A DNA stretch of 64,000 bases, taken from NCBI GenBank assembly GCA_947457885.1, contig CANGXU010000001.1:34471-98470 (forward strand), given 5' to 3'. This DNA is from Betaproteobacteria bacterium. Its GTDB lineage: Bacteria; Pseudomonadota; Gammaproteobacteria; Burkholderiales; CAIKXV01. Of the stretch, positions 21,762-57,241 are shown piece after piece. The notes under the pieces were generated by a model, which was given only the letters and a program-made list of their open reading frames with translations, had not been told where the DNA came from and did no database searches. Position numbers and translations under genes: made by a program. Numbering within the stretch: the first letter of the stretch is position 1; each line of letters opens with the position of its first letter.

Positions 21762-21933
21762 ACCCGCAGGTGCCGCGTTCGTCGGCTTCGGCAGGTTCTC
21801 GAACGTAAGCAGACAGGCTGGCCGTGCGTGCAGGGGGGAGGCGGCGCAGGCTGTGTGCGCGGTCTGCGGGTCGTGCCGAAGAGGGTTGCGAAGCCCACCT
21901 CGGCTGCATGACGCGCGGCCCCGATGCGAATGA

Positions 21934-23085
21934 TCAGCTCGGCCAGGAGCGTGTCGACGGCAGGGGTAGATTCACCGTCGATCCGGTATCGGGACATGGT
22001 GCAGCCTGTCGTGCAGGCGGCATGCCTGCGAGGCTGCCGAAGCGGGCCCTGCAGGCATCCACCAGGCTGTCGATCAGCGACAGCTTCGCCGAGACGGGCC
22101 CGGTGAGCACAAAGGGGCAGGCATCTGCCGAGCCGAGGGAGCGCGACAGTTCGTTCGCGAACTCCGCCAGTGGCAACCAGCGGGCGAGCATCGTTTCGAA
22201 CCGTGTCGAGCCACGGTCGCCGCTGGATGGCAACCCGCCAGGCGACGGTACCGGGTTCACGCCCGCTTCGGTTGCCGACTGGAGCGTGTCGACGATCAGG
22301 AGGTAATGCGCCCAGGTTTCCGCCCAGTCTTCCTGCGGATGTGAAGTGGCGTACGCGCTGATGTACTGATCCGTCCAGCGGAACGGCTGGTTGCCGGCGT
22401 AGTAGGAAGCCAGTGCTTCCGCGTAGCCGCTGTCGATGTCGCCGAAGATCGCTTGCACCATGGCGGTGGCGCCGGGTACCTCGTGCAGCCGTGAAAGATA
22501 GTAGTGCCCGCTTTCATGCCGGAAGTGACCCAGCAGCGTCCGGCAGGGCTCTCCCATGCCCGTGCGCATGCGCTCCCGCTCGACATCGTCGGCCTCGGCG
22601 ATGTTGATGCTGATCACCCCGTCCGAATGCGACGTCATGAACCGGTTGCCGGGCACGATGTCGGCACCGAAAGCGAATCCCAGGCCCTCGGGCGACTCCG
22701 ATCGTGGCACCAGCGGCAGCCGAAGGGCGGCGAGTGTGAACAGCAGGCGGCGCTTGGCACGCTCCAGCCGTCGCCAGTATTCGAGGTGTACCGGCACCGT
22801 GAGCGACGGGATCTGCTGGGTGAAGCGGCAGGCGCGGCACAGCGTGCCGACTTCGTCTTCTTGCAGGATGCCATTGCAGATCGCGTAGTCGATCGAGTTG
22901 CTGCACGGCCTGTAACGCCGACCGGCCGGATCGCTCACGTCGCGCCATGAGCCGCCGCCTGCGTCGGCGAGGGATGCCAGGTGCATCAGGTCCGGTAGCA
23001 GGCCCAGACGCGCTCCGCACGCGAGGCACGACCAGTTGTCGAAATAGACTCGGCTGCCGCAGCGACCGCACCGATGGCGCAACAT
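21934..23085 (-). CDS. Zinc-ribbon plus HExxH putative zinc metallopeptidase (uncharacterised family)
   Basis: Start MLRHRCGRCGSRVYFDNWSCLACGARLG (zinc ribbon) at 23085. HESGH motif and WAETWAHY follow downstream. The ORF-track start at 23343 is spurious. Confidence 0.8.
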   Translation of the reverse strand: MLRHRCGRCGSRVYFDNWSCLACGARLGLLPDLMHLASLADAGGGSWRDVSDPAGRRYRPCSNSIDYAICNGILQEDEVGTLCRACRFTQQIPSLTVPVHLEYWRRLERAKRRLLFTLAALRLPLVPRSESPEGLGFAFGADIVPGNRFMTSHSDGVISINIAEADDVERERMRTGMGEPCRTLLGHFRHESGHYYLSRLHEVPGATAMVQAIFGDIDSGYAEALASYYAGNQPFRWTDQYISAYATSHPQEDWAETWAHYLLIVDTLQSATEAGVNPVPSPGGLPSSGDRGSTRFETMLARWLPLAEFANELSRSLGSADACPFVLTGPVSAKLSLIDSLVDACRARFGSLAGMPPARQAAPCPDTGSTVNLPLPSTRSWPS

Positions 23086-23102
23086 GTCCGTCGAGAACGC
23101 CG

Positions 23103-23345
23103 TCAGCCCGCAAGCGCCGCGGCGAACGAACGCCTGCGCACTTCCACTGCGGAGGGCTGCATCGAGTCCCGGTACTTCGAGACGGTCCGGCGCTCGATCA
23201 TGATGCCCTTGTCGGCAGTGATGCGGGCATCGTTGGCCGAGAGGGGCTGCCGCATCAGTACGCGCGCCGCCCGTGCCGGCGATTTCGCCCAGCACCATGG
23301 GCCACATCGCTGGTTGACGTGACGCACGATGCCAGGCCGCCACAT
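23103..23345 (-). pseudogene. Sigma-54 C-terminal (RpoN-box) fragment: 80-codon ORF, either an rpoN relic or a stand-alone HTH micro-protein
   Basis: Translation ...RQPLSANDARITADKGIMIERRTVSKYRDSMQPSAVEVRRR resembles the RpoN C-terminus (..KPLSD....L...GI.[14 protein letters not shown].S..RK). The ATG at 23345 overlaps the TGA of the upstream UPF0391 gene (TGATG). No other sigma-54 regions are present. Confidence 0.45.
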
Positions 23346-23512
23346 CAGAGCGGCGGCGAACGTCGGCCCAGGAGCGCGAAGATCACGGCCAGGATCAAGC
23401 CGATCACGAACAGCGTCCAGGCTATGCTGGATGCCGTGCCGGCGAGGCCGCCGAGGCCGAGCACGGCTGCGACGATCGCGATGATGAGGAACACTGCTGC
23501 CCAATGGAACAT
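23345..23512 (-). CDS. UPF0391/DUF1328 small membrane protein (YtjA-like), 55 aa
   Basis: Not in the ORF track (<60 aa). Minus-strand read: GGAAGGAG-N6-ATG, MFHWAAVFLIIAIVAAVLGLGGLAGTASSIAWTLFVIGLILAVIFALLGRRSPPL. The family signature ..FF.IALVAA.LGFGG.AG.A..IA is recognisable. Confidence 0.85.
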   Translation of the reverse strand: MFHWAAVFLIIAIVAAVLGLGGLAGTASSIAWTLFVIGLILAVIFALLGRRSPPL

Positions 23513-23529: not shown

Positions 23530-23709
23530 TTATCGGCGGCTTTGCAGTCGCGCAGCCGCCGGTTCGACAGCCACCGGGTAGCGCGGTGTGTCCGCGCTGT
23601 CCAGCAACCGTTCTGCACCGTGTTCGATGTCCTTGCAGATGCCCTGCGCGGTGTCGCAGCCCGCCAGGCCCTTCACCGCCGGCAGGATTTCCGCGAGGGC
23701 GATCGGCAT
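23530..23709 (-). CDS. Hypothetical 59-aa protein
   Basis: ATG at 23709 follows a GAGGAG SD with 5-nt spacing. Third-position GC is very high. MPIALAEILPAVKGLAGCDTAQGICKDIEHGAERLL... has no family I recognise. Ends 17 bp before the UPF0391 start. Confidence 0.5.
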   Translation of the reverse strand: MPIALAEILPAVKGLAGCDTAQGICKDIEHGAERLLDSADTPRYPVAVEPAAARLQSRR

Positions 23710-23838
23710 CCGGATCTCCTCGCGGGGGACCGCACGAAGCTTCGAGGGTCCCCGCTGAGCTTGCCGCAACGAGCGTGCCCGTCGAGGATCCTCAGTCAGG
23801 CGCGGACCCGGTTCCCCGGCCCGGGATCCATCGCTCGT

Positions 23839-25156: not shown

Positions 25157-26146
25157 ATGCCATCTGGAAGACCTGTTGCCGCTGTCGCGCGGCCCGTTCT
25201 GCTGTCGCTGCTGATGGCCTTCGGCGCGGTGCTGCCCGCGGCGCACGCGCAGCTCCAGTTCCCGGTCAAGCCCATCCGGCTGATCGTCGGCAGCGCAGCC
25301 GGCTCGGGTCCGGACATCATCGGGCGGGCGATGGCCGATCGGCTCGGCGAGACCTGGGGCCAGCGGATGATCGTCGACCCGCGCCCAGGTGCCGCTGGTG
25401 CCATCAGCGCGGACCTCGCGATGGCGGCCGTGCCGGACGGCTACACGATGATGATGCTCACGTCGCAGTTGTTCGTCGCATCGCAGGTGCTGACCGGCCT
25501 GAAGTTCGACCTGAGCCGCGATTTCCAGTCGATCGCGTTGATCGGTACCGTGCCGTTCGTCCTGCTGGCGAACACGCAGGTGCCGGCGAAGACGCTGAGG
25601 GAGCTCGTCGAGCTCGCCCGCAAGGCGCCTGGCACGCTACGTTACGGCTCCGCCGGCACGGGTGCGTCCGAGCACCTGTCGGGCGTCCTGCTGACCCAGT
25701 TGACCAGGACCGACATGCTGCACGTCCCCTACAAGGGCGTACCACAGGCGATCGCCGATGCGATGGCCAACGAGGTTCAGGTCACGTATGCGGTGGTGCC
25801 CGCGGCCATCCCGCACGTGCAGTCGGGTCGGTTGCGCGCACTCGGCGTGACGACGCCGGTGCGCGCGCCGCTGCTGCCCGATGTGCCATCCATTTCCGAA
25901 GTGGTACCGGGCTACGCGATGTACGGCTGGTACAGCATCGTCGCGCCGACCGGAACGCCCCCTGCGGTACTAAACCAGGCCAGCGCTGAAATGGTGCGGG
26001 TGATGAAGGAACCCGCATTCGGCGAGCGCCTGAAGGCGCTCGGCGTCGACCTGGTCGCCGGCGACCGGCAGGTGCTCGACAAATGGCGTTCCGAGGAACT
26101 CCAGCGCATCCGCGCGGTAGTCAAGATGGCGGGTGCAAGGCAATAA
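25157..26146 (+). CDS. Bug/TctC-family periplasmic tripartite tricarboxylate transporter substrate-binding protein (paralog 1)
   Basis: AGGAGG-N6-ATG at 25157. Signal peptide is followed by FPVKPIRLIVGSAAGSGPDIIGR...PRPGAAG...PYKG. Confidence 0.9.
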   Translation: MPSGRPVAAVARPVLLSLLMAFGAVLPAAHAQLQFPVKPIRLIVGSAAGSGPDIIGRAMADRLGETWGQRMIVDPRPGAAGAISADLAMAAVPDGYTMMMLTSQLFVASQVLTGLKFDLSRDFQSIALIGTVPFVLLANTQVPAKTLRELVELARKAPGTLRYGSAGTGASEHLSGVLLTQLTRTDMLHVPYKGVPQAIADAMANEVQVTYAVVPAAIPHVQSGRLRALGVTTPVRAPLLPDVPSISEVVPGYAMYGWYSIVAPTGTPPAVLNQASAEMVRVMKEPAFGERLKALGVDLVAGDRQVLDKWRSEELQRIRAVVKMAGARQ

Positions 26147-33666: not shown

Positions 33667-34683
33667 ATGGACACTGATTCGATGCACAACCCTGTGCGCC
33701 CGGTGGTGTCGGTGGCAGCCAGCGCGATCGCGATCGCAGCCACGCTGGCGCTGGCACTGCCGCTGGCCCCGGCCGCGGCGCAGAGCTATCCGGTGCGTCC
33801 GGTGCGCCTGATCGTGCCGTTCGCACCGGGCGCCGCCTCGGACATCACCGGCCGGCTCGTCGCGCAGAAGCTTTCCGAGGGCTTCAACCAGTCGATCGTG
33901 GTCGATAACCGGCCCGGTGCAGGCGGCAACATCGGCCATGACATTGCGGCGAAGGCGCCGCCCGATGGCTACACCATCGTGCTCGCCAACGAATCGCTGG
34001 CGATCAATGCATCGCTCACCCGGAAGCTGCCCTTCGACACGCTGCGCGACCTGGCTGCTATCAGTCTGGTGACGATCAACCCGAGGGTATTCGTTGCTTC
34101 GGCCGCGTCGTCGTTCGAATCGATCAAGGACGTCGTCGCCGCGTCGCGCACGAGGCCGAACAGCATACGGTACGGTTCGTCCGGCATCGGCACCGGTCCG
34201 CACCTGGCGGGCGCAATGCTCTCCAACCTTGCCAGGATCGAGATGATCCACGTGCCCTACAAGGGTGCGGCTCCGGCGCTGGCCGACGTGCTCGGCGGAC
34301 AGATCGAGATGATCGCGACCACCATCCTGTCGTCGCAGCCGATGATCCAGTCGGGCAAGCTGCGTGCGCTCGGTGTCACCTCTGCGAAACGTTCGGGTAC
34401 GCTGCCGAACGTACCGACCGTTGCCGAGAGCGGCGTACCCGGTTTCGAGGCCACGTCCTGGCTGATGCTGCTCGGGCCGGCGAAGATGCCGCGTGCGGTG
34501 GTGGCGCGGCTGCACGAAGAAACCGCGCGCTTCATCGAGCAGCCCGATGTGCGAAAGCGGGTCGCGGCCGATGGTGGCGAGCCTGTGGGTTCTTCGCCTG
34601 ACCAGGCAGCCGCCTACCTGAAGAGCCAGGTCGAGCGTTGGGGGCAGGTGATCCGCGCAGCCGGCGTGCAGCCGGAGGCCTGA
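33667..34683 (+). CDS. Bug/TctC-family substrate-binding protein (paralog 2)
   Basis: GGAGGA-N4-ATG at 33667 (alternatives 33655 and 33682). YPVRPVRLIVPFAPGAASDITGR...NRPGAGGNIG...PYKG. Confidence 0.9.
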   Translation: MDTDSMHNPVRPVVSVAASAIAIAATLALALPLAPAAAQSYPVRPVRLIVPFAPGAASDITGRLVAQKLSEGFNQSIVVDNRPGAGGNIGHDIAAKAPPDGYTIVLANESLAINASLTRKLPFDTLRDLAAISLVTINPRVFVASAASSFESIKDVVAASRTRPNSIRYGSSGIGTGPHLAGAMLSNLARIEMIHVPYKGAAPALADVLGGQIEMIATTILSSQPMIQSGKLRALGVTSAKRSGTLPNVPTVAESGVPGFEATSWLMLLGPAKMPRAVVARLHEETARFIEQPDVRKRVAADGGEPVGSSPDQAAAYLKSQVERWGQVIRAAGVQPEA

Positions 34684-34690
34684 GCCGGCG

Positions 34691-35956
34691 ATGGACGGGC
34701 CATGGCTCGGTTGTATCGCCGACGACTTCACTGGTGCCACCGATCTCGCCAGTACGCTGGTGGCGCAGGGCATGCGCACCGTGGTGCTGCCCGGAGAACC
34801 GCGTCCCGGATTTGCAGTGCCGCGGGCCGACGCACTGGTGGTTGCATTGAAGTCGCGCTCGATCCCGTCCGCGCAGGCGGTCGCGGCGTCGCTCGCGGCA
34901 CTGCGCTGGCTGCAAGAGGCCGGCTGCTCGCAGTTCTTCTTCAAGTACTGCTCGACGTTCGATTCCACAGATTCGGGCAACATCGGCCCGGTGGCCGACG
35001 CGCTGCTCGATGCGCTGGACTCGCGATTCACGCTTGCCTGTCCGGCGTTCCCCGCGAACGCGCGCAGCGTCTATCGCGGCTACCTGTTCGTGGGAGACCG
35101 GCTGCTGTCCGAGTCGGGCATGCGCGATCACCCGCTCACGCCGATGACCGACCCGTCCCTGGTCAGGGTACTGTCGCGGCAGATGCGCAGCGAGGCCGGC
35201 CTCATTGGCTTCGAGACGGTGGAGCAGGGCGCGCCCGCAGTGGTCGATGCCATCCGGGGCTTGCAGAGTCGCGGTGTCCGCATCGCGATCGCCGATGCAT
35301 TGACCGAGCGGCACCTGATGACGCTGGGGGAGGCCAGCGCCGGGCTGGCACTGGTCACCGGCGGCTCCGGCATGGCCATGGGGCTGCCGGCCAACTTCCG
35401 CGCGCGCGGCTGGGTGCCGTCGAAGGACAGCGCTGCCCTGCCTCGGGTTCACGGACCTTGCGCGGTGATTGCCGGCAGCTGCTCGACGATGACGCGCGAG
35501 CAGGTGGCCGCGATGTCGGCCTGGGCGCCGTCCTGGTTCATCGACCCGGCTGCGCTCGACGACCCGGATCGTGCAGTCGGGCAGGCCCTCGATTGGGCGC
35601 GGCCGAAGCTGGCCGCCGGACCGGTGCTGCTGTATTCGACCGCCGCGCCCGAGCGTGTGGCCGAGACGCAGCGGCTGCTGGGCGCCGACGCCGGGCCGTG
35701 CATCGAGCGGGTGCTGGCTGCGATAGCACGCGGACTCGTCGCGGCCGGTGTCAGGCGCCTGGTCGTCGCCGGCGGCGAGACCTCCGGTGCGGTGGTCGGA
35801 GCGCTGGGCATGCCGGCGCTGCGCATCGGACCGGTGATCGCGCCGGGCGTACCGTGGACGGCCGCCGAAGGCGGCGAGCCCATGTGGCTCGCGCTCAAGT
35901 CCGGTAACTTCGGTACTGCGGATTTCTTCCGCACCGCGCTCGACCTTGCCGGTTGA
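34691..35956 (+). CDS. otnK: Four-carbon acid-sugar kinase (DUF1537; 3-oxo-tetronate kinase, YgbK-like)
   Basis: Near-colinear match to E. coli YgbK: IADDFTGATDLAS, FFKYCSTFDSTDSGNIGPVADAL, YRGYLFVGDRLLSESGMRDHPLTPMTD, VVAGGETSGAVV. Confidence 0.88.
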   Translation: MDGPWLGCIADDFTGATDLASTLVAQGMRTVVLPGEPRPGFAVPRADALVVALKSRSIPSAQAVAASLAALRWLQEAGCSQFFFKYCSTFDSTDSGNIGPVADALLDALDSRFTLACPAFPANARSVYRGYLFVGDRLLSESGMRDHPLTPMTDPSLVRVLSRQMRSEAGLIGFETVEQGAPAVVDAIRGLQSRGVRIAIADALTERHLMTLGEASAGLALVTGGSGMAMGLPANFRARGWVPSKDSAALPRVHGPCAVIAGSCSTMTREQVAAMSAWAPSWFIDPAALDDPDRAVGQALDWARPKLAAGPVLLYSTAAPERVAETQRLLGADAGPCIERVLAAIARGLVAAGVRRLVVAGGETSGAVVGALGMPALRIGPVIAPGVPWTAAEGGEPMWLALKSGNFGTADFFRTALDLAG

Positions 35957-35989
35957 TCGCGAAACGCCCGTCGAAGAAAGAAGTTTGCC

Positions 35990-36625
35990 ATGTCGAACGA
36001 AGATCGCCTGCGCGACGAACTGGTGGTGCTCGGCCGTTCTCTGTACGACCGCGGGCTCGCGCATGGCTCGGCCGGCAACCTTAGCGTGAAGCTGTCCGAT
36101 GGCTGGCTGATGTCGCCGACGAATTCCTGCCTGGGCCGCCTGGATCCTGCCCGCCTGTCCCGGCTCGATGCGCAGGGCCGGCTGGTCGACGGCGACGCGC
36201 CGTCGAAGGAAACCTTCCTGCACCTGGCGATGTACGGCGAACGGGCGACCTGCGGCGCGGTGGTGCACCTTCATTCGGTGCATGCGGTCGCGGTGTCCTG
36301 CCTCGACGGACTCGACCCTCAGGATGCCTTCCCGCCGATCACCGCCTACGCGGTGATGCAGGTCGGGCAGTTGGCACTGGTACCTTACTTTCCGCCGGGT
36401 GACCCGGCGCTGGCCGAGGCGGTACGCAGCGTTGCGTCGAAGCACCATTCGATCCTGCTCGCCAACCACGGACCGGTGGTCGCTGGCAGCTCGCTGTCCG
36501 CTGCGGTGGGCGCCATGGAGGAACTCGAACAGACGGCCCGACTGGTGCTGCTGCTCGACGGTCATCGCACCCGGCTGCTGGATCCGGCGCAGGTCGCGGA
36601 TCTGCAGCGCAGGTTCCCCGGCTGA
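35990..36625 (+). CDS. otnC: Class II aldolase/adducin-fold 3-oxo-tetronate 4-phosphate decarboxylase (YgbL-like)
   Basis: GSAGNLSVKL..SPTNSCLGRLDPARLS..PSKETFLHLAMY..AVVHLHS..LLANHGPVVAG..MEELEQTARL parallels YgbL. Confidence 0.85.
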   Translation: MSNEDRLRDELVVLGRSLYDRGLAHGSAGNLSVKLSDGWLMSPTNSCLGRLDPARLSRLDAQGRLVDGDAPSKETFLHLAMYGERATCGAVVHLHSVHAVAVSCLDGLDPQDAFPPITAYAVMQVGQLALVPYFPPGDPALAEAVRSVASKHHSILLANHGPVVAGSSLSAAVGAMEELEQTARLVLLLDGHRTRLLDPAQVADLQRRFPG

Positions 36626-36630
36626 GCCTG

Positions 36631-36667
36631 CCCTGCGGCACAATAGGCACCGACAAGAACCGCAGGG
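36631..36667 (+). terminator. GC-rich hairpin 5 nt after the otnC stop (CCCTGCGG-N21-CCGCAGGG), possible terminator or attenuator
   Basis: 8-bp perfect stem read from the sequence. There is no U-tract, so intrinsic-terminator status is uncertain. Confidence 0.25.
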
Positions 36668-36726
36668 CGCGACTGCACCGCGCCTCGGCGCCAGGGCCTG
36701 CCAGAACCGTCCTGGCCTGCACGGAG

Positions 36727-37710
36727 GTGATACACGTGAGCAGGAGATCGTCATCCATCGTTGCGCTGGCCGCCATCGGATTGTGCGGGGCCGGCAATGC
36801 CACCGCACAGCCCGCCTGGCCTGCGAAGCCAGTGCGGCTCGTGTTGCCGTTTCCGCCCGGCGGTGGCACCGACATCCTGGGCCGGACGCTGGCCCTGCGC
36901 CTCGGCGATGCGCTGGGCCAGCCGGTGCTGACCGACAATCGCCCCGGTGCTGGCGGCAACCTCGGAGCCGAGATGGTCGCCCGGTCGGCGCCGGACGGCT
37001 ATACCGCCGTGCTGGTCGCACCAGGCTTCGTGATCAGCCCGAGCATGTACCGCAAGCTCGGCTTCGATCCGTTCAAGGACTTCGAACCGGTGTCGCTGGT
37101 CGCGTGGATCCCGAACCTGCTGGCGGTGCATCCCTCGCTGCCGGTGCAGAACGTGAAGGAACTGGTCGCCTATGCGAAGGCGAACCCGGACCGGCTGAGT
37201 TACGGCTCCGGCGGCGTCGGGACGTCGAACCACCTGGGTACCGAACTGCTCGCGGTACGCACCGGCACCCGCATGGTACATGTGCCGTACAAGGGCGCGG
37301 CCACCGCGATGATGGATACCGTCGCCGGCAACGTGCACCTGATCACGATCGGCACCGGTGCCGCGCTGGCGCAGGTCAGGGCGGGCAAGCTGCGTGCGCT
37401 CGCGACGCTCACCCCGGCCCGCGTGCCGAATGCACCGGAGATCCCGACCATCGCCGAGGCGGGCTTTCCCGGGCTTGAGGTACTGACGTGGTATGGCGTG
37501 TTCCTTCCGGCGAAGACGTCGAGGCAGATCGTCGATCGCATGAATTCGGAACTTTCGCGGCTGATGTTCGAGCCTGAGGTGCGCGAGCGACTGTCGAGCA
37601 TCGGCGCCGAGCCGATGAAGAGCACGACAGCCGAGACGGCCCGGTTCATCCGCGAGGAATACAAACGCTGGGCTGAGGTGATCAAGGCCGCGAAACTGCA
37701 GATGGACTGA
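36727..37710 (+). CDS. Bug/TctC-family substrate-binding protein (paralog 3)
   Basis: GTG start at 36727 or, with better SD spacing (GGAGG-N8), at 36736. WPAKPVRLVLPFPPGGGTDILGR...NRPGAGGNLG...PYKG. Confidence 0.9.
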   Translation: MIHVSRRSSSIVALAAIGLCGAGNATAQPAWPAKPVRLVLPFPPGGGTDILGRTLALRLGDALGQPVLTDNRPGAGGNLGAEMVARSAPDGYTAVLVAPGFVISPSMYRKLGFDPFKDFEPVSLVAWIPNLLAVHPSLPVQNVKELVAYAKANPDRLSYGSGGVGTSNHLGTELLAVRTGTRMVHVPYKGAATAMMDTVAGNVHLITIGTGAALAQVRAGKLRALATLTPARVPNAPEIPTIAEAGFPGLEVLTWYGVFLPAKTSRQIVDRMNSELSRLMFEPEVRERLSSIGAEPMKSTTAETARFIREEYKRWAEVIKAAKLQMD

Positions 37711-37714
37711 TGCG

Positions 37715-38752
37715 ATGACGATACCGAGATGTGGATGGCGGGTCCCGGCGGCTGCAGGCGCATGCGGTCGGCGGCAGGGCATGGAAGTGGGCGCGGCGCT
37801 CGCGCTCGCGTGCGCGATGCTGCCGGTGGCCAGTGCTTTCGCCGCGGGCACGGTGGCGTTCCCGACGCGCCCGATGCGGATCATCGTGCCCTTCGCGCCG
37901 GGCGGTCCGACCGATGTCGCGGCGCGGGTGATCGGGCCGAAGATGAGCGATGCCTGGGGCCAGCCGGTCGTCATCGACAACCGTGTCGGTGCGGGTGGCA
38001 ACATCGGCATGGCGCTGGCCGCGAAGGCACCGCCCGACGGCCATACGGTGCTGTTCACCAGCAGTTCGGTCGTGGTCAACCAGACGCTGTTCAGCAAGCC
38101 GGGCTACGACGTGTTCAAGGATCTGGTCGCGGTGACCCGCGCAAACACCACGCCCAACATCCTGGTCGTGCATCCCTCGGTTCCCGCGAAGAACCTGACC
38201 GAACTGATCGCGCTGGTGCGGGCCAATCCGGGCAAGTACAGCTATGCATCGCCCGGGACGGGTACCACCGGCCACCTCAGTTGCGAGATGCTTCGCGTGG
38301 CGACGAAGATAGATATTCAGCATGTACCGTTCAACGGGGCGGCACCCGCGGTGACTTCCATCGTGGGTAACCAGACGCCGATCGGCTGCCTCGGCCTTCC
38401 GCCGGCACAGCCGCAGCTGAAATCGGGTGCGCTGCGCCCGATCGCGGTGACCAGTGCCCAGCGCTGGAAGCAGAACCCCGACGTGCCGACGATGGTCGAG
38501 AGTGGCTTCCCCGGCTTCGTCAACGACCTGATGACCGGCGTGTTCCTGCCGGCCGGCACGCCTGCGGCGATCGTCAACCGGCTGCAGGCCGAGATCGCCC
38601 GCATCGTGATGCTGCCCGATGTGCAGGACCGGCTCGGCCCGCTCGGATTCGAACCGGTGGCCAATACCCCGGCCCAGTTCGCACGGCAGGTGCGCGAGGA
38701 GGTCGAGATGTATGGCAAGGTCATCCGCGAGGCGAACATCAAGTCAGACTGA
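37715..38752 (+). CDS. Bug/TctC-family substrate-binding protein (paralog 4)
   Basis: ATG at 37715 (alternative 37781). FPTRPMRIIVPFAPGGPTDVAAR...NRVGAGGNIG. Begins 4 bp after paralog 3. Confidence 0.9.
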   Translation: MTIPRCGWRVPAAAGACGRRQGMEVGAALALACAMLPVASAFAAGTVAFPTRPMRIIVPFAPGGPTDVAARVIGPKMSDAWGQPVVIDNRVGAGGNIGMALAAKAPPDGHTVLFTSSSVVVNQTLFSKPGYDVFKDLVAVTRANTTPNILVVHPSVPAKNLTELIALVRANPGKYSYASPGTGTTGHLSCEMLRVATKIDIQHVPFNGAAPAVTSIVGNQTPIGCLGLPPAQPQLKSGALRPIAVTSAQRWKQNPDVPTMVESGFPGFVNDLMTGVFLPAGTPAAIVNRLQAEIARIVMLPDVQDRLGPLGFEPVANTPAQFARQVREEVEMYGKVIREANIKSD

Positions 38753-38795
38753 CCCCGGGACCCTTCGTCCCGGCGCGTCCAACGAGGAGAATGAA

Positions 38796-39803
38796 GTGAA
38801 TACGAATCGACCCGCACGTCGAGCCATCCTTGCGACCGGTGCGCTGCTGGGCGCAGCTTCCCTGATGCAGACCGCACCCGTGTTCGCGCAGGGCAAGGCT
38901 GCGGACGTGTTTCCCTCCCGGCCGGTGCGCATGATCGTTCCGTTCGCGCCCGGCGGCCCGACCGATATCGTGGCCCGACTGCTCGGACAGCGCCTGGGCG
39001 ATCTCTGGGGCCAGACCGTCCTGATCGACAACCGGGCGGGGGCCGGTGGCAACCTCGGCGTGGAAATCGCGGCCCGTGCGGCACCCGATGGCTACACCAT
39101 CCTGGTCACGAGTTCGAGCTTCGTGGTCAACCCTGCGCTGTACGAGAAGCTGCGCTGGGATCCGTTCAAGAGCTTCGTGCCGGTGACCAATGCCGCGACT
39201 TCGCCGAACCTGATCGTCGTGCACCCGTCGGTGCCGGCGAAGTCGATGAAGGACCTGGTCGCGCTGGTCAAGTCCCAGCCGGGCAAGTTCAGCTATGCGT
39301 CGCCCGGCCTGGGCACCACGCCGCAGCTGTCCTGCGAGATGCTCAAGGCGATCGCGGGCGTGGACATCCAGCACGTGCCCTACGGCGGCGCTGGCCCTGC
39401 GACCACGTCGGTGGTGGGGAACCAGAATCCCGTGGGGTGCATGGCCCAGCCGCCAGCCGTGCCGCATGTGCAGGCCGGCAAACTGCGCGCGCTCGCCATC
39501 ACCAGCGCGAAGCGCTCGGCGAGCCTCCCCGATGTACCGACCATGGTCGAGCAGGGCTTCACGAACTTCGTCACCGACAACATGAACGGCGTGTTCCTGC
39601 CTGCCGGTGCAGCGCCGGCGCTGGTCGCGCGGCTGCATGCCGACATCCTCAAGGCGCTGGCCACGCCGGACCTGCGCGAGCGCTTGCAGGCGCAAGGGCT
39701 CGAGCCGGTGGGCGACACGCCGCAGGCCTTCGCGGCCTACGTGAAGCAGCAGATCGCGCAGTGGACGAAGGTCATCAAGGACGCCGGGATCAAGGTGGAA
39801 TGA
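38796..39803 (+). CDS. Bug/TctC-family substrate-binding protein (paralog 5), twin-arginine-like signal
   Basis: GAGGAGA-N5-GTG at 38796. VNTNRPARRAILATGALLGAASL... then FPSRPVRMIVPFAPGGPTDIVAR...NRAGAGGNLG. Confidence 0.88.
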   Translation: MNTNRPARRAILATGALLGAASLMQTAPVFAQGKAADVFPSRPVRMIVPFAPGGPTDIVARLLGQRLGDLWGQTVLIDNRAGAGGNLGVEIAARAAPDGYTILVTSSSFVVNPALYEKLRWDPFKSFVPVTNAATSPNLIVVHPSVPAKSMKDLVALVKSQPGKFSYASPGLGTTPQLSCEMLKAIAGVDIQHVPYGGAGPATTSVVGNQNPVGCMAQPPAVPHVQAGKLRALAITSAKRSASLPDVPTMVEQGFTNFVTDNMNGVFLPAGAAPALVARLHADILKALATPDLRERLQAQGLEPVGDTPQAFAAYVKQQIAQWTKVIKDAGIKVE

Positions 39804-40879
39804 TGAGGCCGATCGGCCTGGGCATCATCGGCGCGGGCCGCATCGGTACCCTGCGCGCACGGCTCGCAGCGAAGCACGCTGGAGTGCGGTTCATTGCGGT
39901 TTCCGACAGCGACCCGAAGAACGCGGCGCGTACGGCGGGGCTTTGCGGTGCCGCGCTGCACGGTACCGACAACGACGCGATCATCGACCATCCCGAGGTG
40001 GACGCGGTGATCGTGTCGACGCCGGAAGGCGAGCATCTGGCGCCGGTGCTGCGCGCGATCGCGGCGGGCAAGCCGGTGCTGGTCGAGAAGCCGGTCGCAC
40101 TCACGCTTGCCGATGCTGACCGGGTGATCGCCGCGGCGCAGAAGGCTGGCACCGACCTGCGGGTCGGCTACAGCCGCCGCTACAAGGACCGCTACCTGAT
40201 CGCGCGCGAACAGATCCTGCAGGGCCGTATCGGGAAGATCCTCGGCGCCTCGGCCCGCGTGTTCAACTCGCGCGCGCAGGCGCTGGCGATGATGGGGCGC
40301 AACCCCCATGCGACGCCGGTGGTCGATGCGCTGACGTACTACGTCGACCTGATCGGCTGGTTCCTCGACGGCGAGCCGTTGCGCGAGGTGTATGCCCGCG
40401 GTCAGAAAGGGGTGCTCGCAGCTGCCGGCCATGCCGCGGACGATGTCGACTTCGCGCTGCTGACCTATGAGCGCGGCACCGTCGTCAATCTCACCGTCAG
40501 CTATGCACTCCCATCGATGTACCCGGCGCTGGGCCATGCCGCGCGTGTCGAACTGATCGGCGACCAGGGCGTGATGATCCTCGACGACGACCACACCGAC
40601 CAGCTGATGTATTCCGAGAAGGGCATGCCGCACGTGTACCTGCCCGACCATAACGTCAATATGGTGTTCCTGCAGAGCGGCACGCCCGGCGATTGGGCGC
40701 TGGGGGAGTTCTGGGGGCCGATCGCCAACGAGACGAGGGCCTGGCTGGATTTCCTCGTGCTCGGATCGCCCTGTGTGCTGCCCGATGGGCGTACCGCGCG
40801 TGCGACACTCGAAGCGACGCTGGCAATCGAAGCCTCTGTCGCTTCTGGCGGCGCGATACACCTCCCGCTGGCCGGGTGA
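39800..40879 (+). CDS. Gfo/Idh/MocA-family NAD(P)-dependent oxidoreductase
   Basis: MMRPIGLGIIGAGRIG...VSTPEGEHLAPVLRAIAAGKPVLVEKP. The start overlaps the preceding stop (ATGATGA). Confidence 0.88.
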   Translation: MMRPIGLGIIGAGRIGTLRARLAAKHAGVRFIAVSDSDPKNAARTAGLCGAALHGTDNDAIIDHPEVDAVIVSTPEGEHLAPVLRAIAAGKPVLVEKPVALTLADADRVIAAAQKAGTDLRVGYSRRYKDRYLIAREQILQGRIGKILGASARVFNSRAQALAMMGRNPHATPVVDALTYYVDLIGWFLDGEPLREVYARGQKGVLAAAGHAADDVDFALLTYERGTVVNLTVSYALPSMYPALGHAARVELIGDQGVMILDDDHTDQLMYSEKGMPHVYLPDHNVNMVFLQSGTPGDWALGEFWGPIANETRAWLDFLVLGSPCVLPDGRTARATLEATLAIEASVASGGAIHLPLAG

Positions 40880-40890
40880 ACGGGAGACGG

Positions 40891-41871
40891 ATGAAGACGA
40901 TGCATGGTGCGAAAGTTCGGATGTCGACGGCGCTCGCGGTCGCCCTGGCGGCTGCGGCGCCCGTCGCCGCACAGCCGGCCTGGCCGTCGAAGCCGGTGCG
41001 GATGATCGTCGCGTTCGTCCCCGGCGGCGGCACGGATATCGTCGCGCGCATGCTGGCACCGCGCTTCGGCGAAGCGCTGGGGCAGACGATGGTGATCGAC
41101 AACCGCGGCGGGGCTGGCGGCAATATCGGCACTGAAGTCGCCGCTCGCGCGGCCGCCGATGGCTACACGCTCCTGATGGGCAACGTGGCGCCGAACGCGA
41201 TCAACGTCAGCCTGGCGCCGGTGCCGTTCGATCCGGTCAAGGATTTCGCGCCGATCTCGCAGGTGGCGATCACGCCGAACGTGCTGGTCGTGCACCCGTC
41301 GCTGCCGGTGAAGACGGTCAAGGAACTGCTCGCGCTGGCCCGGGCGAAACCCGGGGCGCTCGCTTTCCCTTCTGCCGGCAACGGCACGTCCTCGCACCTT
41401 GCCGGAGAACTGCTGAAGAACCTGGCGAAGATCGACATGCTGCACGTTCCGTACAAGGGCGGTGGTGCGGCGCTGGCCGACCTGATGGGCGGGCAGGTAC
41501 AGTTGATGTTCGCGACCACGCCGGCGGCGATGCCGCTGGTGAAAGCCGGTCGCCTGCGCGCGATCGCAGTCACGACCCGGGCGCGTTCCCAGGCCCTGCC
41601 CGAGCTGCCGACGATGATCGAGGCCGGGGTGCCGAACTATGACGCGGCAACCTGGTACGGCCTGCTCGCGCCGGCGGCGACGCCGCGCGGGGTGATCGAC
41701 CGGATGCATGCCGAGACGGTGAAGATCATCGGTACGCCGGACATGCGCGAGAAGCTCATTGCGCAGGGGTTCGAGCCGGTGGGCAGTTCGCCGGCGGAGT
41801 TCGCTGCGTACATCCAGGCGCAGATCGAGACCTGGGCGAAGGTGATTCGGGCGGCGGGCTTGCGGTCGTAG
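40891..41871 (+). CDS. Bug/TctC-family substrate-binding protein (paralog 6)
   Basis: GGAG-N4-ATG at 40891. WPSKPVRMIVAFVPGGGTDIVAR...NRGGAGGNIG...PYKGGG. Confidence 0.9.
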   Translation: MKTMHGAKVRMSTALAVALAAAAPVAAQPAWPSKPVRMIVAFVPGGGTDIVARMLAPRFGEALGQTMVIDNRGGAGGNIGTEVAARAAADGYTLLMGNVAPNAINVSLAPVPFDPVKDFAPISQVAITPNVLVVHPSLPVKTVKELLALARAKPGALAFPSAGNGTSSHLAGELLKNLAKIDMLHVPYKGGGAALADLMGGQVQLMFATTPAAMPLVKAGRLRAIAVTTRARSQALPELPTMIEAGVPNYDAATWYGLLAPAATPRGVIDRMHAETVKIIGTPDMREKLIAQGFEPVGSSPAEFAAYIQAQIETWAKVIRAAGLRS

Positions 41872-56221: not shown

Positions 56222-57241
56222 CTATTCGATCCGGATGCCGGCCTCTCGTCCGATCCGGCTCCAGCGCGCGAGCTCGGCGCGCAGGTATTCCCCGAAGGCC
56301 TCCGGCGTGCTTGCCACCGGTTCGGCCCCCTCGGCGGTGAGCCTCTCCACGGCATCGGGCTGGCGCAGGATACGGCCGATCTCGCTGCTCATGCGACCGG
56401 TGATTTCCTTTGCGGTGCCGGCCGGGGCGAGGATGCCCTGCCAGGCGCTGATCTCGTAGCCATCCAGCCCGCTCTCGGCGACGGTCGGCAACTGTGGTGC
56501 GAACGCGGTGCGCTTCGCGGTGGTCACCGCGATCGCGCGCAGCTTGCCGGTCTTCACGTGCGGCAGGAACTGGTGCGCGATGCCGAACGTCATCGATACC
56601 TGTCCGCCAAGCAGGTCGGTCAGGGTCGGCGCATTGCCCTTGTAGGGCACGTGGATCATGTCGGTCTTCGTGAGCCAGGTGAACATCGCCGCCGCCATGT
56701 GAGGCGAGGTGCCATGGCCGGAGCTGGCGTAGGTCAGCTGCCCGGGCCGTGCCCGGGCGAGTGCTGCGAGTTCCTTCACCGTCTTCACCGGCAGCGAGGG
56801 ATGTACGACCAGCATCAGCGGCAGCGACACCAGTTGCGTGACCGGCGCGAAGCTGCGTATCGGGTCGAAAGGCAGGTCCTTGCGCATCCCGGCATTGATC
56901 GGGAAGGCGATGGTCATCATCAGCATCGTGTAGCCGTCGGGCGGTGCCTTGGCCACGAGTTCGGCGCCGATCATGCCGCCCGCGCCCGGGCGGTTGTCGA
57001 CCACCACCGTCTGGCCGAGGGGTTCTGCCAGACGCTGCGCGACCAGACGGCCGATGTTGTCCGTGGTGCCGCCGGCCGCGAATGGAATCACCAGTCGCAG
57101 CGCTCTTGCCGGCCATGCCTGTGCGGGCGAGGGCTGCGCTGCGGCGACCGGCGCATCCGCGAGTGCGGCGAGCCCCAGCAGGGCCGCCGCCAGTACGGGT
57201 CCCGGGCGGGGTGAATGGCAGATGCCAGCGGGATCGCTCAT
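56222..57241 (-). CDS. Bug/TctC-family substrate-binding protein (paralog 7)
   Basis: WPARALRLVIPFAAGGTTDNIGR...NRPGAGGMIG...PYKGN. Confidence 0.9.
   Translation of the reverse strand: MSDPAGICHSPRPGPVLAAALLGLAALADAPVAAAQPSPAQAWPARALRLVIPFAAGGTTDNIGRLVAQRLAEPLGQTVVVDNRPGAGGMIGAELVAKAPPDGYTMLMMTIAFPINAGMRKDLPFDPIRSFAPVTQLVSLPLMLVVHPSLPVKTVKELAALARARPGQLTYASSGHGTSPHMAAAMFTWLTKTDMIHVPYKGNAPTLTDLLGGQVSMTFGIAHQFLPHVKTGKLRAIAVTTAKRTAFAPQLPTVAESGLDGYEISAWQGILAPAGTAKEITGRMSSEIGRILRQPDAVERLTAEGAEPVASTPEAFGEYLRAELARWSRIGREAGIRIE

Follow-up and report, generated by a model that had tools for sequence, protein, structure and literature searches.

Second copies of rpoN are known from Burkholderiales and other Proteobacteria. 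Ralstonia solanacearum carries rpoN1 and rpoN2 (PMC4371752, PMC4676750), Burkholderia pseudomallei carries rpoN2 (PMC4745423), and these second copies can be dispensable for most sigma-54 functions (PMC4371752, PMC4676750, PMC4745423). Within sigma-54, the C-terminal RpoN domain has been characterised as a promoter-recognition module with some independence (PMC5095919), and double substitutions at residues 439-442 abolished DNA binding in a systematic mutant library (PMC2715252). Nothing relevant on RpoN-box proteins that are truncated or stand alone was found in the literature searched. Deletion-derived gene remnants, the class to which the feature described here very probably belongs, are already well known in bacteria, and it would be a further instance of them.

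We analysed a 64-kb stretch of DNA (the window) from a Betaproteobacteria genome, in which an 80-codon minus-strand ORF (ORF80) lies between a DUF1328/UPF0391 gene and a Zn-ribbon metallopeptidase gene (Table 1). The ATG of ORF80 and the TGA of the DUF1328 gene have one base in common (the A of TGATG, in the context ...CTCTGATGTGG), and 17 nt separate the ORF80 stop from the peptidase ATG at 23085. Some gene callers start ORF80 at Met31, which gives a 50-aa form. Rfam and tRNA scans of the window returned no matches, and scanning for sigma-70 promoters and terminators was uninformative near ORF80.

The likeness of ORF80 to sigma-54 was confined to its C-terminal part. The Pfam model PF04552 (Sigma54_DBD) matched with 24.7 bits (gathering score 22.8; E=2.2e-5), and the match was limited to ORF80 residues 34-71, corresponding to model positions 121-160 of 160. 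Seven NCBIfam sigma-54 models also matched (top E=2e-6). All of the 23 PDB matches obtained at E up to 10 were sigma-54 chains (top E=0.002), and ORF80 residues 32-70 aligned to the HTH and RpoN box of Aquifex aeolicus (2O8K/2O9L/2AHQ) and E. coli (2MT3) sigma-54. A tblastn comparison with the intact orthologue showed 59-61% identity across 66-67 aa (E ~3e-15). The RpoN box of ORF80 reads ERRTVSKYR against ARRTV(A/S)KYR, so that eight of nine residues are kept; the first A, invariant in 35 sigma-54s, is E. Other parts of sigma-54 were not detected. ORF80 had no match to PF00309 (Sigma54_AID, Region I) at E<=10 and none to PF04963 (Sigma54_CBD), and residues 1-356 of the intact orthologue had no tblastn match anywhere in the 64-kb window. 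Neither a sigma-54 region besides ORF80 nor a GAFTGA-type activator motif was found within the window. The DNA-binding region itself (PF04552: ELH, -12 HTH, RpoN domain) is incomplete in ORF80, and the codons bordering the -12 HTH are out of frame. GC3 was 0.86 in codons 31-80 and 0.73 in codons 1-30, with 0.76-0.85 in the neighbouring genes. A first-pass annotation, made from the letters of the window, had already given the ORF coordinates, the shared base of TGATG, the 17-bp gap, both neighbours, the RpoN likeness of the C-terminus, the lack of activator-interacting and core-binding sigma-54 regions in the window and the high GC3 over the RpoN-box half. All of these were borne out, and the PF04552 search that it had proposed was positive.

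Genomes carrying the same peptidase were then compared. A peptidase scan of GTDB species genomes covered at least 80 loci, with 40-48% identity among the matches listed, and did not reach the true relatives; at these loci, neither an rpoN-like sequence beside the peptidase nor a short ORF80 homologue was found. A protein search with the peptidase as query yielded a closer series at 75, 68, 66, 65, 61 and 60% identity, and the true relatives were found by this search plus look-up of their contigs. In four of them (L093, L094, L097 and L098), a full-length sigma-54 gene (478-492 aa here and 473-496 aa over six related metagenome/MAG loci, with AID, CBD and DBD) is located directly upstream of the peptidase gene. 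In L106, the last 203 rpoN codons were seen, ending 8 nt before the peptidase gene. L099 and L100 contain the entericidin-DUF1328-rpoN series, with a full-length rpoN, without the peptidase gene, and their flanks are those of the window: CMD, YjgF, TctC and MTase on one side, and CCG, Fer4 and 4HBT_3 on the other. Since the flanking genes of the relatives are 79-95% identical to those of the window, L099 and L100 are close relatives of the window lineage. By TctC, MTase and peptidase alike, the nearest relative is L093. All these sister lineages are uncultured Betaproteobacteria/Burkholderiales known from metagenomes only. The first-pass annotation had proposed looking for an intact ORF80 beside the same neighbours in related genomes; a full-length rpoN occupies the site there instead.

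Table 1. Features of the ORF80 locus in the window and of the corresponding rpoN genes in relatives
Feature	Position	Strand	Evidence or remark
Sigma-54-type -24/-12 promoter-like element GGGCACGCTCGTTGC (GGGCAC-N5-TTGC)	23766..23780	-	Upstream of the operon; sole match in 64 kb
Entericidin-like gene, first in operon	23530..23709	-	tblastn, 52-67% identity to entericidin genes of relatives
DUF1328/UPF0391 gene, 55 codons	23345..23512	-	PF07043, E=3e-12; NCBIfam PRK13682, E=8e-22; TGA directly beside the deletion junction
ORF80, mosaic 3' remnant of a probable accessory sigma-54 (rpoN) gene	23103..23345	-	Read 23345->23103, 80 aa; TGA at 23105-23103; PF04552 match; colinear with the 3' third of intact rpoN in L093, L094, L097 and L098
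Block A, ancestral (EARW)FVRNVNQR	23308..23342	-	Right after the 5' deletion junction; in ORF80 frame from IVRHVNQR on
Block B, ancestral AMRPMVLREIADT, leading into the -12 HTH	23273..23310	-	Out of frame; reads CGPWCWAKSP in ORF80
Block C, ancestral (S)ARAVRALIRQIITAED, helix 1 of the RpoN domain	23224..23278	-	In frame; blastn, 55 nt, 71% identity
Block D, last 41 codons, degenerate RpoN box ERRTVSKYR, ancestral stop	23103..23228	-	In frame
Zn_ribbon_DZR_6 + Peptidase_Mx metallopeptidase gene, 383 aa, intact	21934..23085	-	PF15887, E=3e-81; PF10005, E=2.5e-22
Transglutaminase-like gene remnant, 67 nt	21867..21933	-	Gene is 3' of the peptidase gene in relatives; tblastn, 75% identity to L097 residues 230-249; blastn, 82% over 67 nt to L094 5281-5347
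Full-length rpoN in L093	4549-5985		Between DUF1328 and peptidase genes
Full-length rpoN in L094	2016-3494		Between DUF1328 and peptidase genes
Full-length rpoN in L097	4506-5984		Between DUF1328 and peptidase genes
Full-length rpoN in L098	4446-5903		Directly upstream of peptidase gene; upstream context differs

The canonical rpoN of Burkholderiaceae is only ~50% identical (51%) to the gene found at this site and is located in the classical kdsD-kdsC-lptC-lptA-lptB-rpoN-hpf-ptsN-hprK locus, while the members of a sigma-54 clade with 54-100% identity lie in contexts other than lptB-rpoN-hpf. Thus, the gene lost from the window lineage appears to belong to a separate accessory clade (a paralogue) and not to represent the housekeeping lptB-rpoN-hpf copy. 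The housekeeping rpoN is presumably located elsewhere in the genome, which would make the lost gene a second copy. Like the accessory rpoN2 genes, the ancestral gene encoded a full AID-CBD-DBD sigma-54 outside the lptB-rpoN-hpf locus. Unlike the rpoN2 genes studied so far, it formed an operon with entericidin, DUF1328 and Zn-ribbon peptidase genes in an island of stress-type genes, and it was destroyed in the window lineage.

Nucleotide comparison with the intact genes indicated that ORF80 consists of four colinear stretches of ancestral DNA, designated blocks A-D. In a global alignment with cheap gap extension, the 5' part was broken into too many pieces, and the blocks were taken from blastn and local alignment. 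The 22-nt core of block A (23329-23308) shows 86-91% identity in four relatives, and against L094 the block can be followed over 34 nt if one 1-nt indel is allowed. Block B was matched by blastn over 38-45 nt with 80-82% identity; by tblastn it corresponds to residues 357-371 of L093 RpoN, in a frame other than that of ORF80. For block D the blastn identity was 78-80%, and the alignment continued through the intergenic spacer into the peptidase gene. The offsets between the blocks correspond to deletions of ~1040, 76, 131 and net 30 nt, in total ~1.28 kb, by which ~84% of the gene was removed. The ~1040-nt deletion comprises the spacer after the DUF1328 gene and roughly the first 320-335 codons, and the CBD was removed with it. 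The 76-nt deletion precedes block B and the 131-nt deletion follows it; their sum is 207 nt, so that these two frameshifting deletions cancel and the frame is restored, and ~10 ORF80 codons in between read the ancestral sequence out of frame. The 30-nt net loss is in frame, precedes block D and has short repeats (GCC-CGN) around it. Its placement is ambiguous, with either RHPLSDVKVA or IITAEDARH plus one more codon missing, and both placements were scored for invariant positions; under either one, the first helix of the HTH is shortened or replaced. The three internal deletions total 237 nt, a multiple of 3.

The first-pass annotation had noted a faint resemblance of MWRPGIV-RHVN to the ...FFSSHV segment of RpoN, but it comes from the ancestral FVRNVNQR, ~90 codons further upstream. 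The alignment of HVN with SSHVN, which was also produced by tblastn with E. coli RpoN, was rejected on the nucleotide evidence. In the relatives, the base after the TGA of the DUF1328 gene is C or G, a spacer of 35-82 nt separates this gene from rpoN, and there is no ATG at the junction. Since the relatives have TGAC or TGAG plus a spacer, the TGATG overlap, and with it the ORF80 ATG, was created by the deletion junction and is not an evolved feature. Of the start coupling suggested earlier, the overlap is therefore real; its evolved character is not upheld, as it is an accident of the junction.

Constraint was analysed in the 51 codons still in the ancestral frame. A Tajima-type test with three outgroups assigned 11-12 private replacements to the window lineage and 0 to its sister L093 (chi2 = 11-12). 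Pairwise dN/dS between the window and L093, L094 or L097 was 0.20-0.22, as against 0.03-0.04 between the intact genes of these three relatives. A three-taxon decomposition, made with few codons and a dS of about 1 that approaches saturation, gave omega ~0.35 for the window branch and 0.04 for the L093 branch. The dN/dS check proposed in the first-pass annotation had a value near 1 as the mark of decay: relaxation was detected, and the branch value is below 1. The same relative-rate test was balanced for the peptidase (14-18 vs 17-29; dN/dS 0.19-0.28), TctC (6-10 vs 8-14) and MTase (13 vs 13-18), and a lineage-wide acceleration is excluded by these controls. The peptidase is still under normal constraint. 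As a rough estimate from these rates, constraint on the remnant would have been absent over about one third of the window branch, counted from its divergence from the closest sampled relative. The window-branch dN/dS of ~0.35, being below 1, would fit a mix of constrained and neutral time, and there may be weak ongoing constraint.

In a set of 35 sigma-54s that spans 48-100% identity and includes canonical copies, 20 positions of the C-terminal domain are invariant. ORF80 has changed or lost 7-9 of them: G421, S425, A431V, L455T, A463E (where the RpoN box begins) and E440/D448, with or without P445/S447. In addition, 12-13 ORF80 residues were never seen at their columns in the 35 proteins, and the helix-2 positions equivalent to 439-442 are altered. 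A natural RpoN domain is part of a ~400-500-aa protein and forms a confident three-helix bundle after a beta-hairpin; ORF80 has no first part of this kind, and it differs further by the net 10-residue loss before the recognition helix and by the A-to-E change at the start of the RpoN box. AlphaFold with the family alignment gave ORF80 a mean pLDDT of 55, with ~50-55 over the HTH. With the same alignment, the intact protein P0128 reached 84-93 over the domain and showed the beta-hairpin and three helices; the beta-hairpin part is deleted in ORF80. Thus, no fold of ORF80 was predicted with confidence.

We then examined how widely ORF80 is distributed. A word-indexed search of 5.8 billion proteins returned one 90% cluster, that of ORF80, and nothing else. 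An exhaustive phmmer search of 1.84 billion representative proteins returned ORF80's own cluster and three eukaryote-like repeat proteins, and no short stand-alone homologue was found among them. The three repeat proteins were rejected as homologues, their matches being multi-stretch repeat artefacts. At least a dozen metagenome contigs, which come from independent samples, have ORF80 among their called genes. All 12 contigs that were fetched (L001-L005, L086-L092) carry it with an open frame, and they are >99.8% identical over 3.2 kb, a level at which the intact frame has no statistical power and within-population dN/dS is impossible. Across them, a single polymorphism (S65P) was found within ORF80. 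These results indicated that ORF80 is confined to one species-level population.

These comparisons showed where ORF80 comes from and where its breakpoints lie, that its frame is a mosaic, that constraint on it is relaxed and that it is restricted to one lineage. ORF80 is in all likelihood a non-functional deletion remnant (pseudogene fragment) of a redundant accessory sigma-54 gene. Its peptide presumably has no sigma-54-related function. In the proposed course of events, four deletions (~1040, 76, 131 and 30 nt) in the window lineage would have removed ~1.28 kb of the rpoN region, and the remaining 243 nt would have been fused straight to the DUF1328 stop, the fusion creating the ATG. Region I and the core-binding domain are missing from the product, as are the extra-long helix with the -12 HTH and the initial third of the RpoN domain; it therefore cannot act as a sigma factor (no core binding, no activator response). 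The residual RpoN-box segment is degenerating. The loss may have proceeded by successive deletions of a redundant paralogue while the island was dismantled. The frame could have stayed open because stops are rare at 68% G+C and the C-terminal part keeps the ancestral codon structure; by our own estimate, ~17% of random 80-codon stretches are stop-free at the composition of the window, and many long spurious ORFs were listed in it. Since the 237 nt lost in the internal deletions leave the frame unchanged and the ORF80 start overlaps the DUF1328 stop, the ORF80 peptide may well be translated. The first-pass annotation had considered a young rpoN relic: the relic is supported by the full-length syntenic gene in relatives, and 'young' has to be qualified in view of four deletions and 12 replacements.

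ORF80 resembles other bacterial pseudogene fragments in having intact syntenic orthologues, multiple deletions, of which at least one is repeat-flanked, and a frame disruption. It also resembles them in its accelerated replacement, in its restriction to one lineage and in that neighbours from the same island were lost or truncated too. It differs from the usual fragments in being uninterrupted, with its start fused to the upstream stop. Because it is an uninterrupted ORF with a start, gene callers annotate an 80-aa or 50-aa protein with Sigma54_DBD, and such remnant ORFs, called as 'Sigma54_DBD' proteins by annotation pipelines, should not be read as new regulators. The points counted against the remnant reading were the 12/12 open frames, the possible translation of the peptide, the kept RRTVSKYR, the GC3 of 0.86 and the branch dN/dS below 1.

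Three other explanations were weighed against the deletion remnant. A chance similarity in GC-rich DNA, or a metagenome mis-assembly, has next to no probability. It could appeal to the single-sequence phmmer search with ORF80, which found no sigma-54 among 1.84 billion proteins at library-wide E<=0.001; however, the profile matches exceed the curated threshold, the identity of 59-61% over 66-67 aa is to the syntenic gene, and the nucleotide colinearity runs into both neighbours. As the same structure was present in the 12 fetched contigs, which come from independent samples and assemblers, ORF80 is real and no product of mis-assembly. The 12 contigs, the nucleotide colinearity and the tblastn E of ~3e-15 together refuted this explanation. 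A stand-alone RpoN-box micro-protein that binds -24 elements and competes with sigma-54 had been put forward in the first-pass annotation. Such a product, of 80 aa or of 50 aa from Met31, would fold as a small HTH and damp sigma-54-dependent promoters, for instance that of its own operon; we consider it very improbable. Isolated RpoN domains of 63-84 aa do exist as solved structures (2O8K, 2AHQ, 2MT3), the RRTVSKYR core is kept, some gene callers predict the 50-aa form and a sigma-54-type promoter-like site is kept upstream of the operon. However, ORF80 occurs in one species-level population and has no conserved family, and its N-terminal third is a frame-scrambled mosaic. The deletions have taken the beta-hairpin, and what should be helix 2 is either shorter or a replacement. 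Changes or losses affect the invariant residues A431, L455 and A463 as well as E440 and/or D448, and the altered positions include the equivalents of 439-442, where double substitutions abolish DNA binding (PMC2715252). The pLDDT of ~50-55 over the HTH region and the replacements accelerated 12:0 likewise speak against it. It is equally hard to credit that the remnant was later recruited as a regulator, which would be translated via TGATG, recognise GG-N10-GC and compete, for example, at the GGGCAC-N5-TTGC site of its own operon.

A third explanation concerns the reading frame and leaves the peptide without meaning: the frame would be kept so that ribosomes loaded at the DUF1328 gene reach the peptidase start by termination-reinitiation, formerly via rpoN. 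As regards the peptide, this translational relay is compatible with the remnant reading. The peptidase is normally constrained and must therefore be expressed, and its own Shine-Dalgarno sequence is weak or absent (-1.8 kcal/mol in the window, +0.7 in L094). Its start lies 15-19 nt past the upstream stop both in L093, L094 and L097 (rpoN) and in the window (ORF80). ORF80 itself is not preceded by a Shine-Dalgarno sequence (0.0), and its ATG overlaps the DUF1328 stop. The DUF1328 gene has a strong one (GGAG), and its start region GGAGTCGACCATGTTC is conserved even though the DUF1328 protein evolves faster in the window lineage (relative-rate 9:1). The cancelling of the frameshifting 76- and 131-nt deletions would also be expected from a relay. 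However, an in-frame sum has a one-in-three chance of arising anyway, open frames are cheap at 68% GC, and in L098 the gap is 97 nt and the Shine-Dalgarno sequence is better, which means that the coupling is not universal. The argument is moreover post hoc, and we regard the relay as unlikely. It nevertheless provides a testable idea, that remnants may stay open because translation must be relayed to a downstream gene.

The deletion remnant lies in an island that is itself reduced in the window lineage. In the sister lineages, the operon (entericidin - DUF1328 - rpoN - Zn-ribbon peptidase) is part of an island of small stress-type genes, which also encodes Transgly_assoc, lipocalin and DUF883 proteins. 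Its further members vary between relatives: a transglutaminase-like protein, AsmA and a holin-like protein are each encoded in some, and L093 has an NtrC-type enhancer-binding protein. The pattern GGGCAY-N5-TTGC occurs in these islands 3-6 times per 13-17 kb, against 0.07-0.13 expected, and 0 of 200 shuffles reached the observed number. Most of these sites are located just upstream of a gene or operon. The one such site in the window (23780-23766) aligns with the site before the entericidin gene of L093, L094 and L097. This accessory sigma-54 island of the relatives, with a -24/-12-type site before nearly every unit, is of greater interest than ORF80; the island lies mostly outside the window, which represents a degraded state of it. 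The Transgly_assoc/lipocalin/DUF883 block is missing from the window, and so are AsmA and the enhancer-binding protein, which are present in some relatives. The entericidin-like gene had no Pfam match; its signal peptide looks degenerate, it has a 16-aa C-terminal extension, and its relative-rate count was 11:0, so that both small genes before ORF80 evolve fast in this lineage, unlike the peptidase gene. The absent block and the transglutaminase-like remnant show that the island as a whole is decaying in the window lineage. Between the peptidase and CCG genes, the window has only ~170 nt, in which the 67-nt transglutaminase-like remnant is found.

We scored a sigma-54-type -24/-12 motif, GGGCAY-N5-TTGC, in which G replaces the usual T before GG. 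Over whole loci, it occurred six, three and four times in the related metagenome loci L093, L097 and L099, respectively, where 0.07-0.13 copies were expected. The majority of these sites lay immediately 5' of a stress-type gene or operon, and the units behind them were entericidin-DUF1328-rpoN-peptidase, Transgly_assoc, DUF883-lipocalin, AsmA and GDSL lipase. This enrichment and positioning suggest that, in uncultured Betaproteobacteria, small general-stress-like proteins form the regulon of an accessory sigma-54.

An NtrC-type enhancer-binding protein of 544 aa is encoded in L093; the counterpart position in L097 holds just a 111-aa ORF, which may be another truncated gene, here in a relative with an intact rpoN paralogue. 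The rpoN gene of L101/L102 adjoins a divergent enhancer-binding protein gene and a two-component system, and a related peptidase gene in L104 also has an enhancer-binding protein gene beside it. Judged from these two gene arrangements, the putative association of the peptidase and stress genes with sigma-54 control thus reaches past the closest relatives.

Within the window operon, the entericidin-like gene showed 52-67% identity to the entericidin genes of the relatives, and a Pfam search did not recognize its product. The protein has lost its N-terminal Arg, carries E, P and K within the signal-peptide core, and has a 16-aa extension at the C-terminus. The relative-rate test gave 11:0, indicating that this gene is possibly decaying too. 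The DUF1328/UPF0391 protein also changed more quickly in the window lineage, where it gathered 9 private changes against the 1-3 of L093. All relatives share an identical sequence, GGAGTCGACCATGTTC, across the Shine-Dalgarno and start region of its gene.

The peptidase gene had a weak or absent Shine-Dalgarno sequence in L093, L094, L097 and the window, and in all four the preceding (rpoN) frame terminated 15-19 nt before the peptidase start. This combination suggests that the peptidase may be translated by termination-reinitiation. The peptidase is followed by a transglutaminase-like gene in L094, L097 and L106, of which the window keeps a remnant. Between the position of this remnant and the CCG gene, the relatives carry an extra gene block that is absent from the window; it contained Transgly_assoc, lipocalin and DUF883 in every case, and some relatives additionally had AsmA and an enhancer-binding protein there.

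Coordinates of features in the window and in related loci
Feature	Locus	Position	Strand	Remark
Transglutaminase-like remnant	window	21867-21933	-	second gene remnant, ~22 codons
Spacer, upstream frame/peptidase	window	23086-23102		
DUF1328/UPF0391 gene	window	23345-23512	-	
Entericidin homologue	window	23530-23709	-	first gene of operon, 59 codons
GGGCAY-N5-TTGC site	window	23766-23780	-	single copy retained, position orthologous to relatives' site
TctC/Bug paralogue	window	25157-26146		
TctC/Bug paralogue	window	~33.8-34.7 kb		
TctC/Bug paralogues	window	36.8-39.8 kb		three consecutive
TctC/Bug paralogue	window	40.98-41.87 kb		
TctC/Bug paralogue	window	56.2-57.1 kb		
TctC/Bug regions covering the four preceding entries	window	33784-41868; 56231-57115		
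111-aa ORF	L097	10816-11151		HTH_8 match
Accessory rpoN, further clade member	L101/L102	8001-9491		77% identity to L097 copy
Peptidase beside enhancer-binding protein	L104	3428-6050		peptidase 60% identical; BON and DUF1328 genes close by

The window also contains at least seven paralogues of the TctC/Bug family of periplasmic binding proteins; many such paralogues are typical for Burkholderiales genomes.
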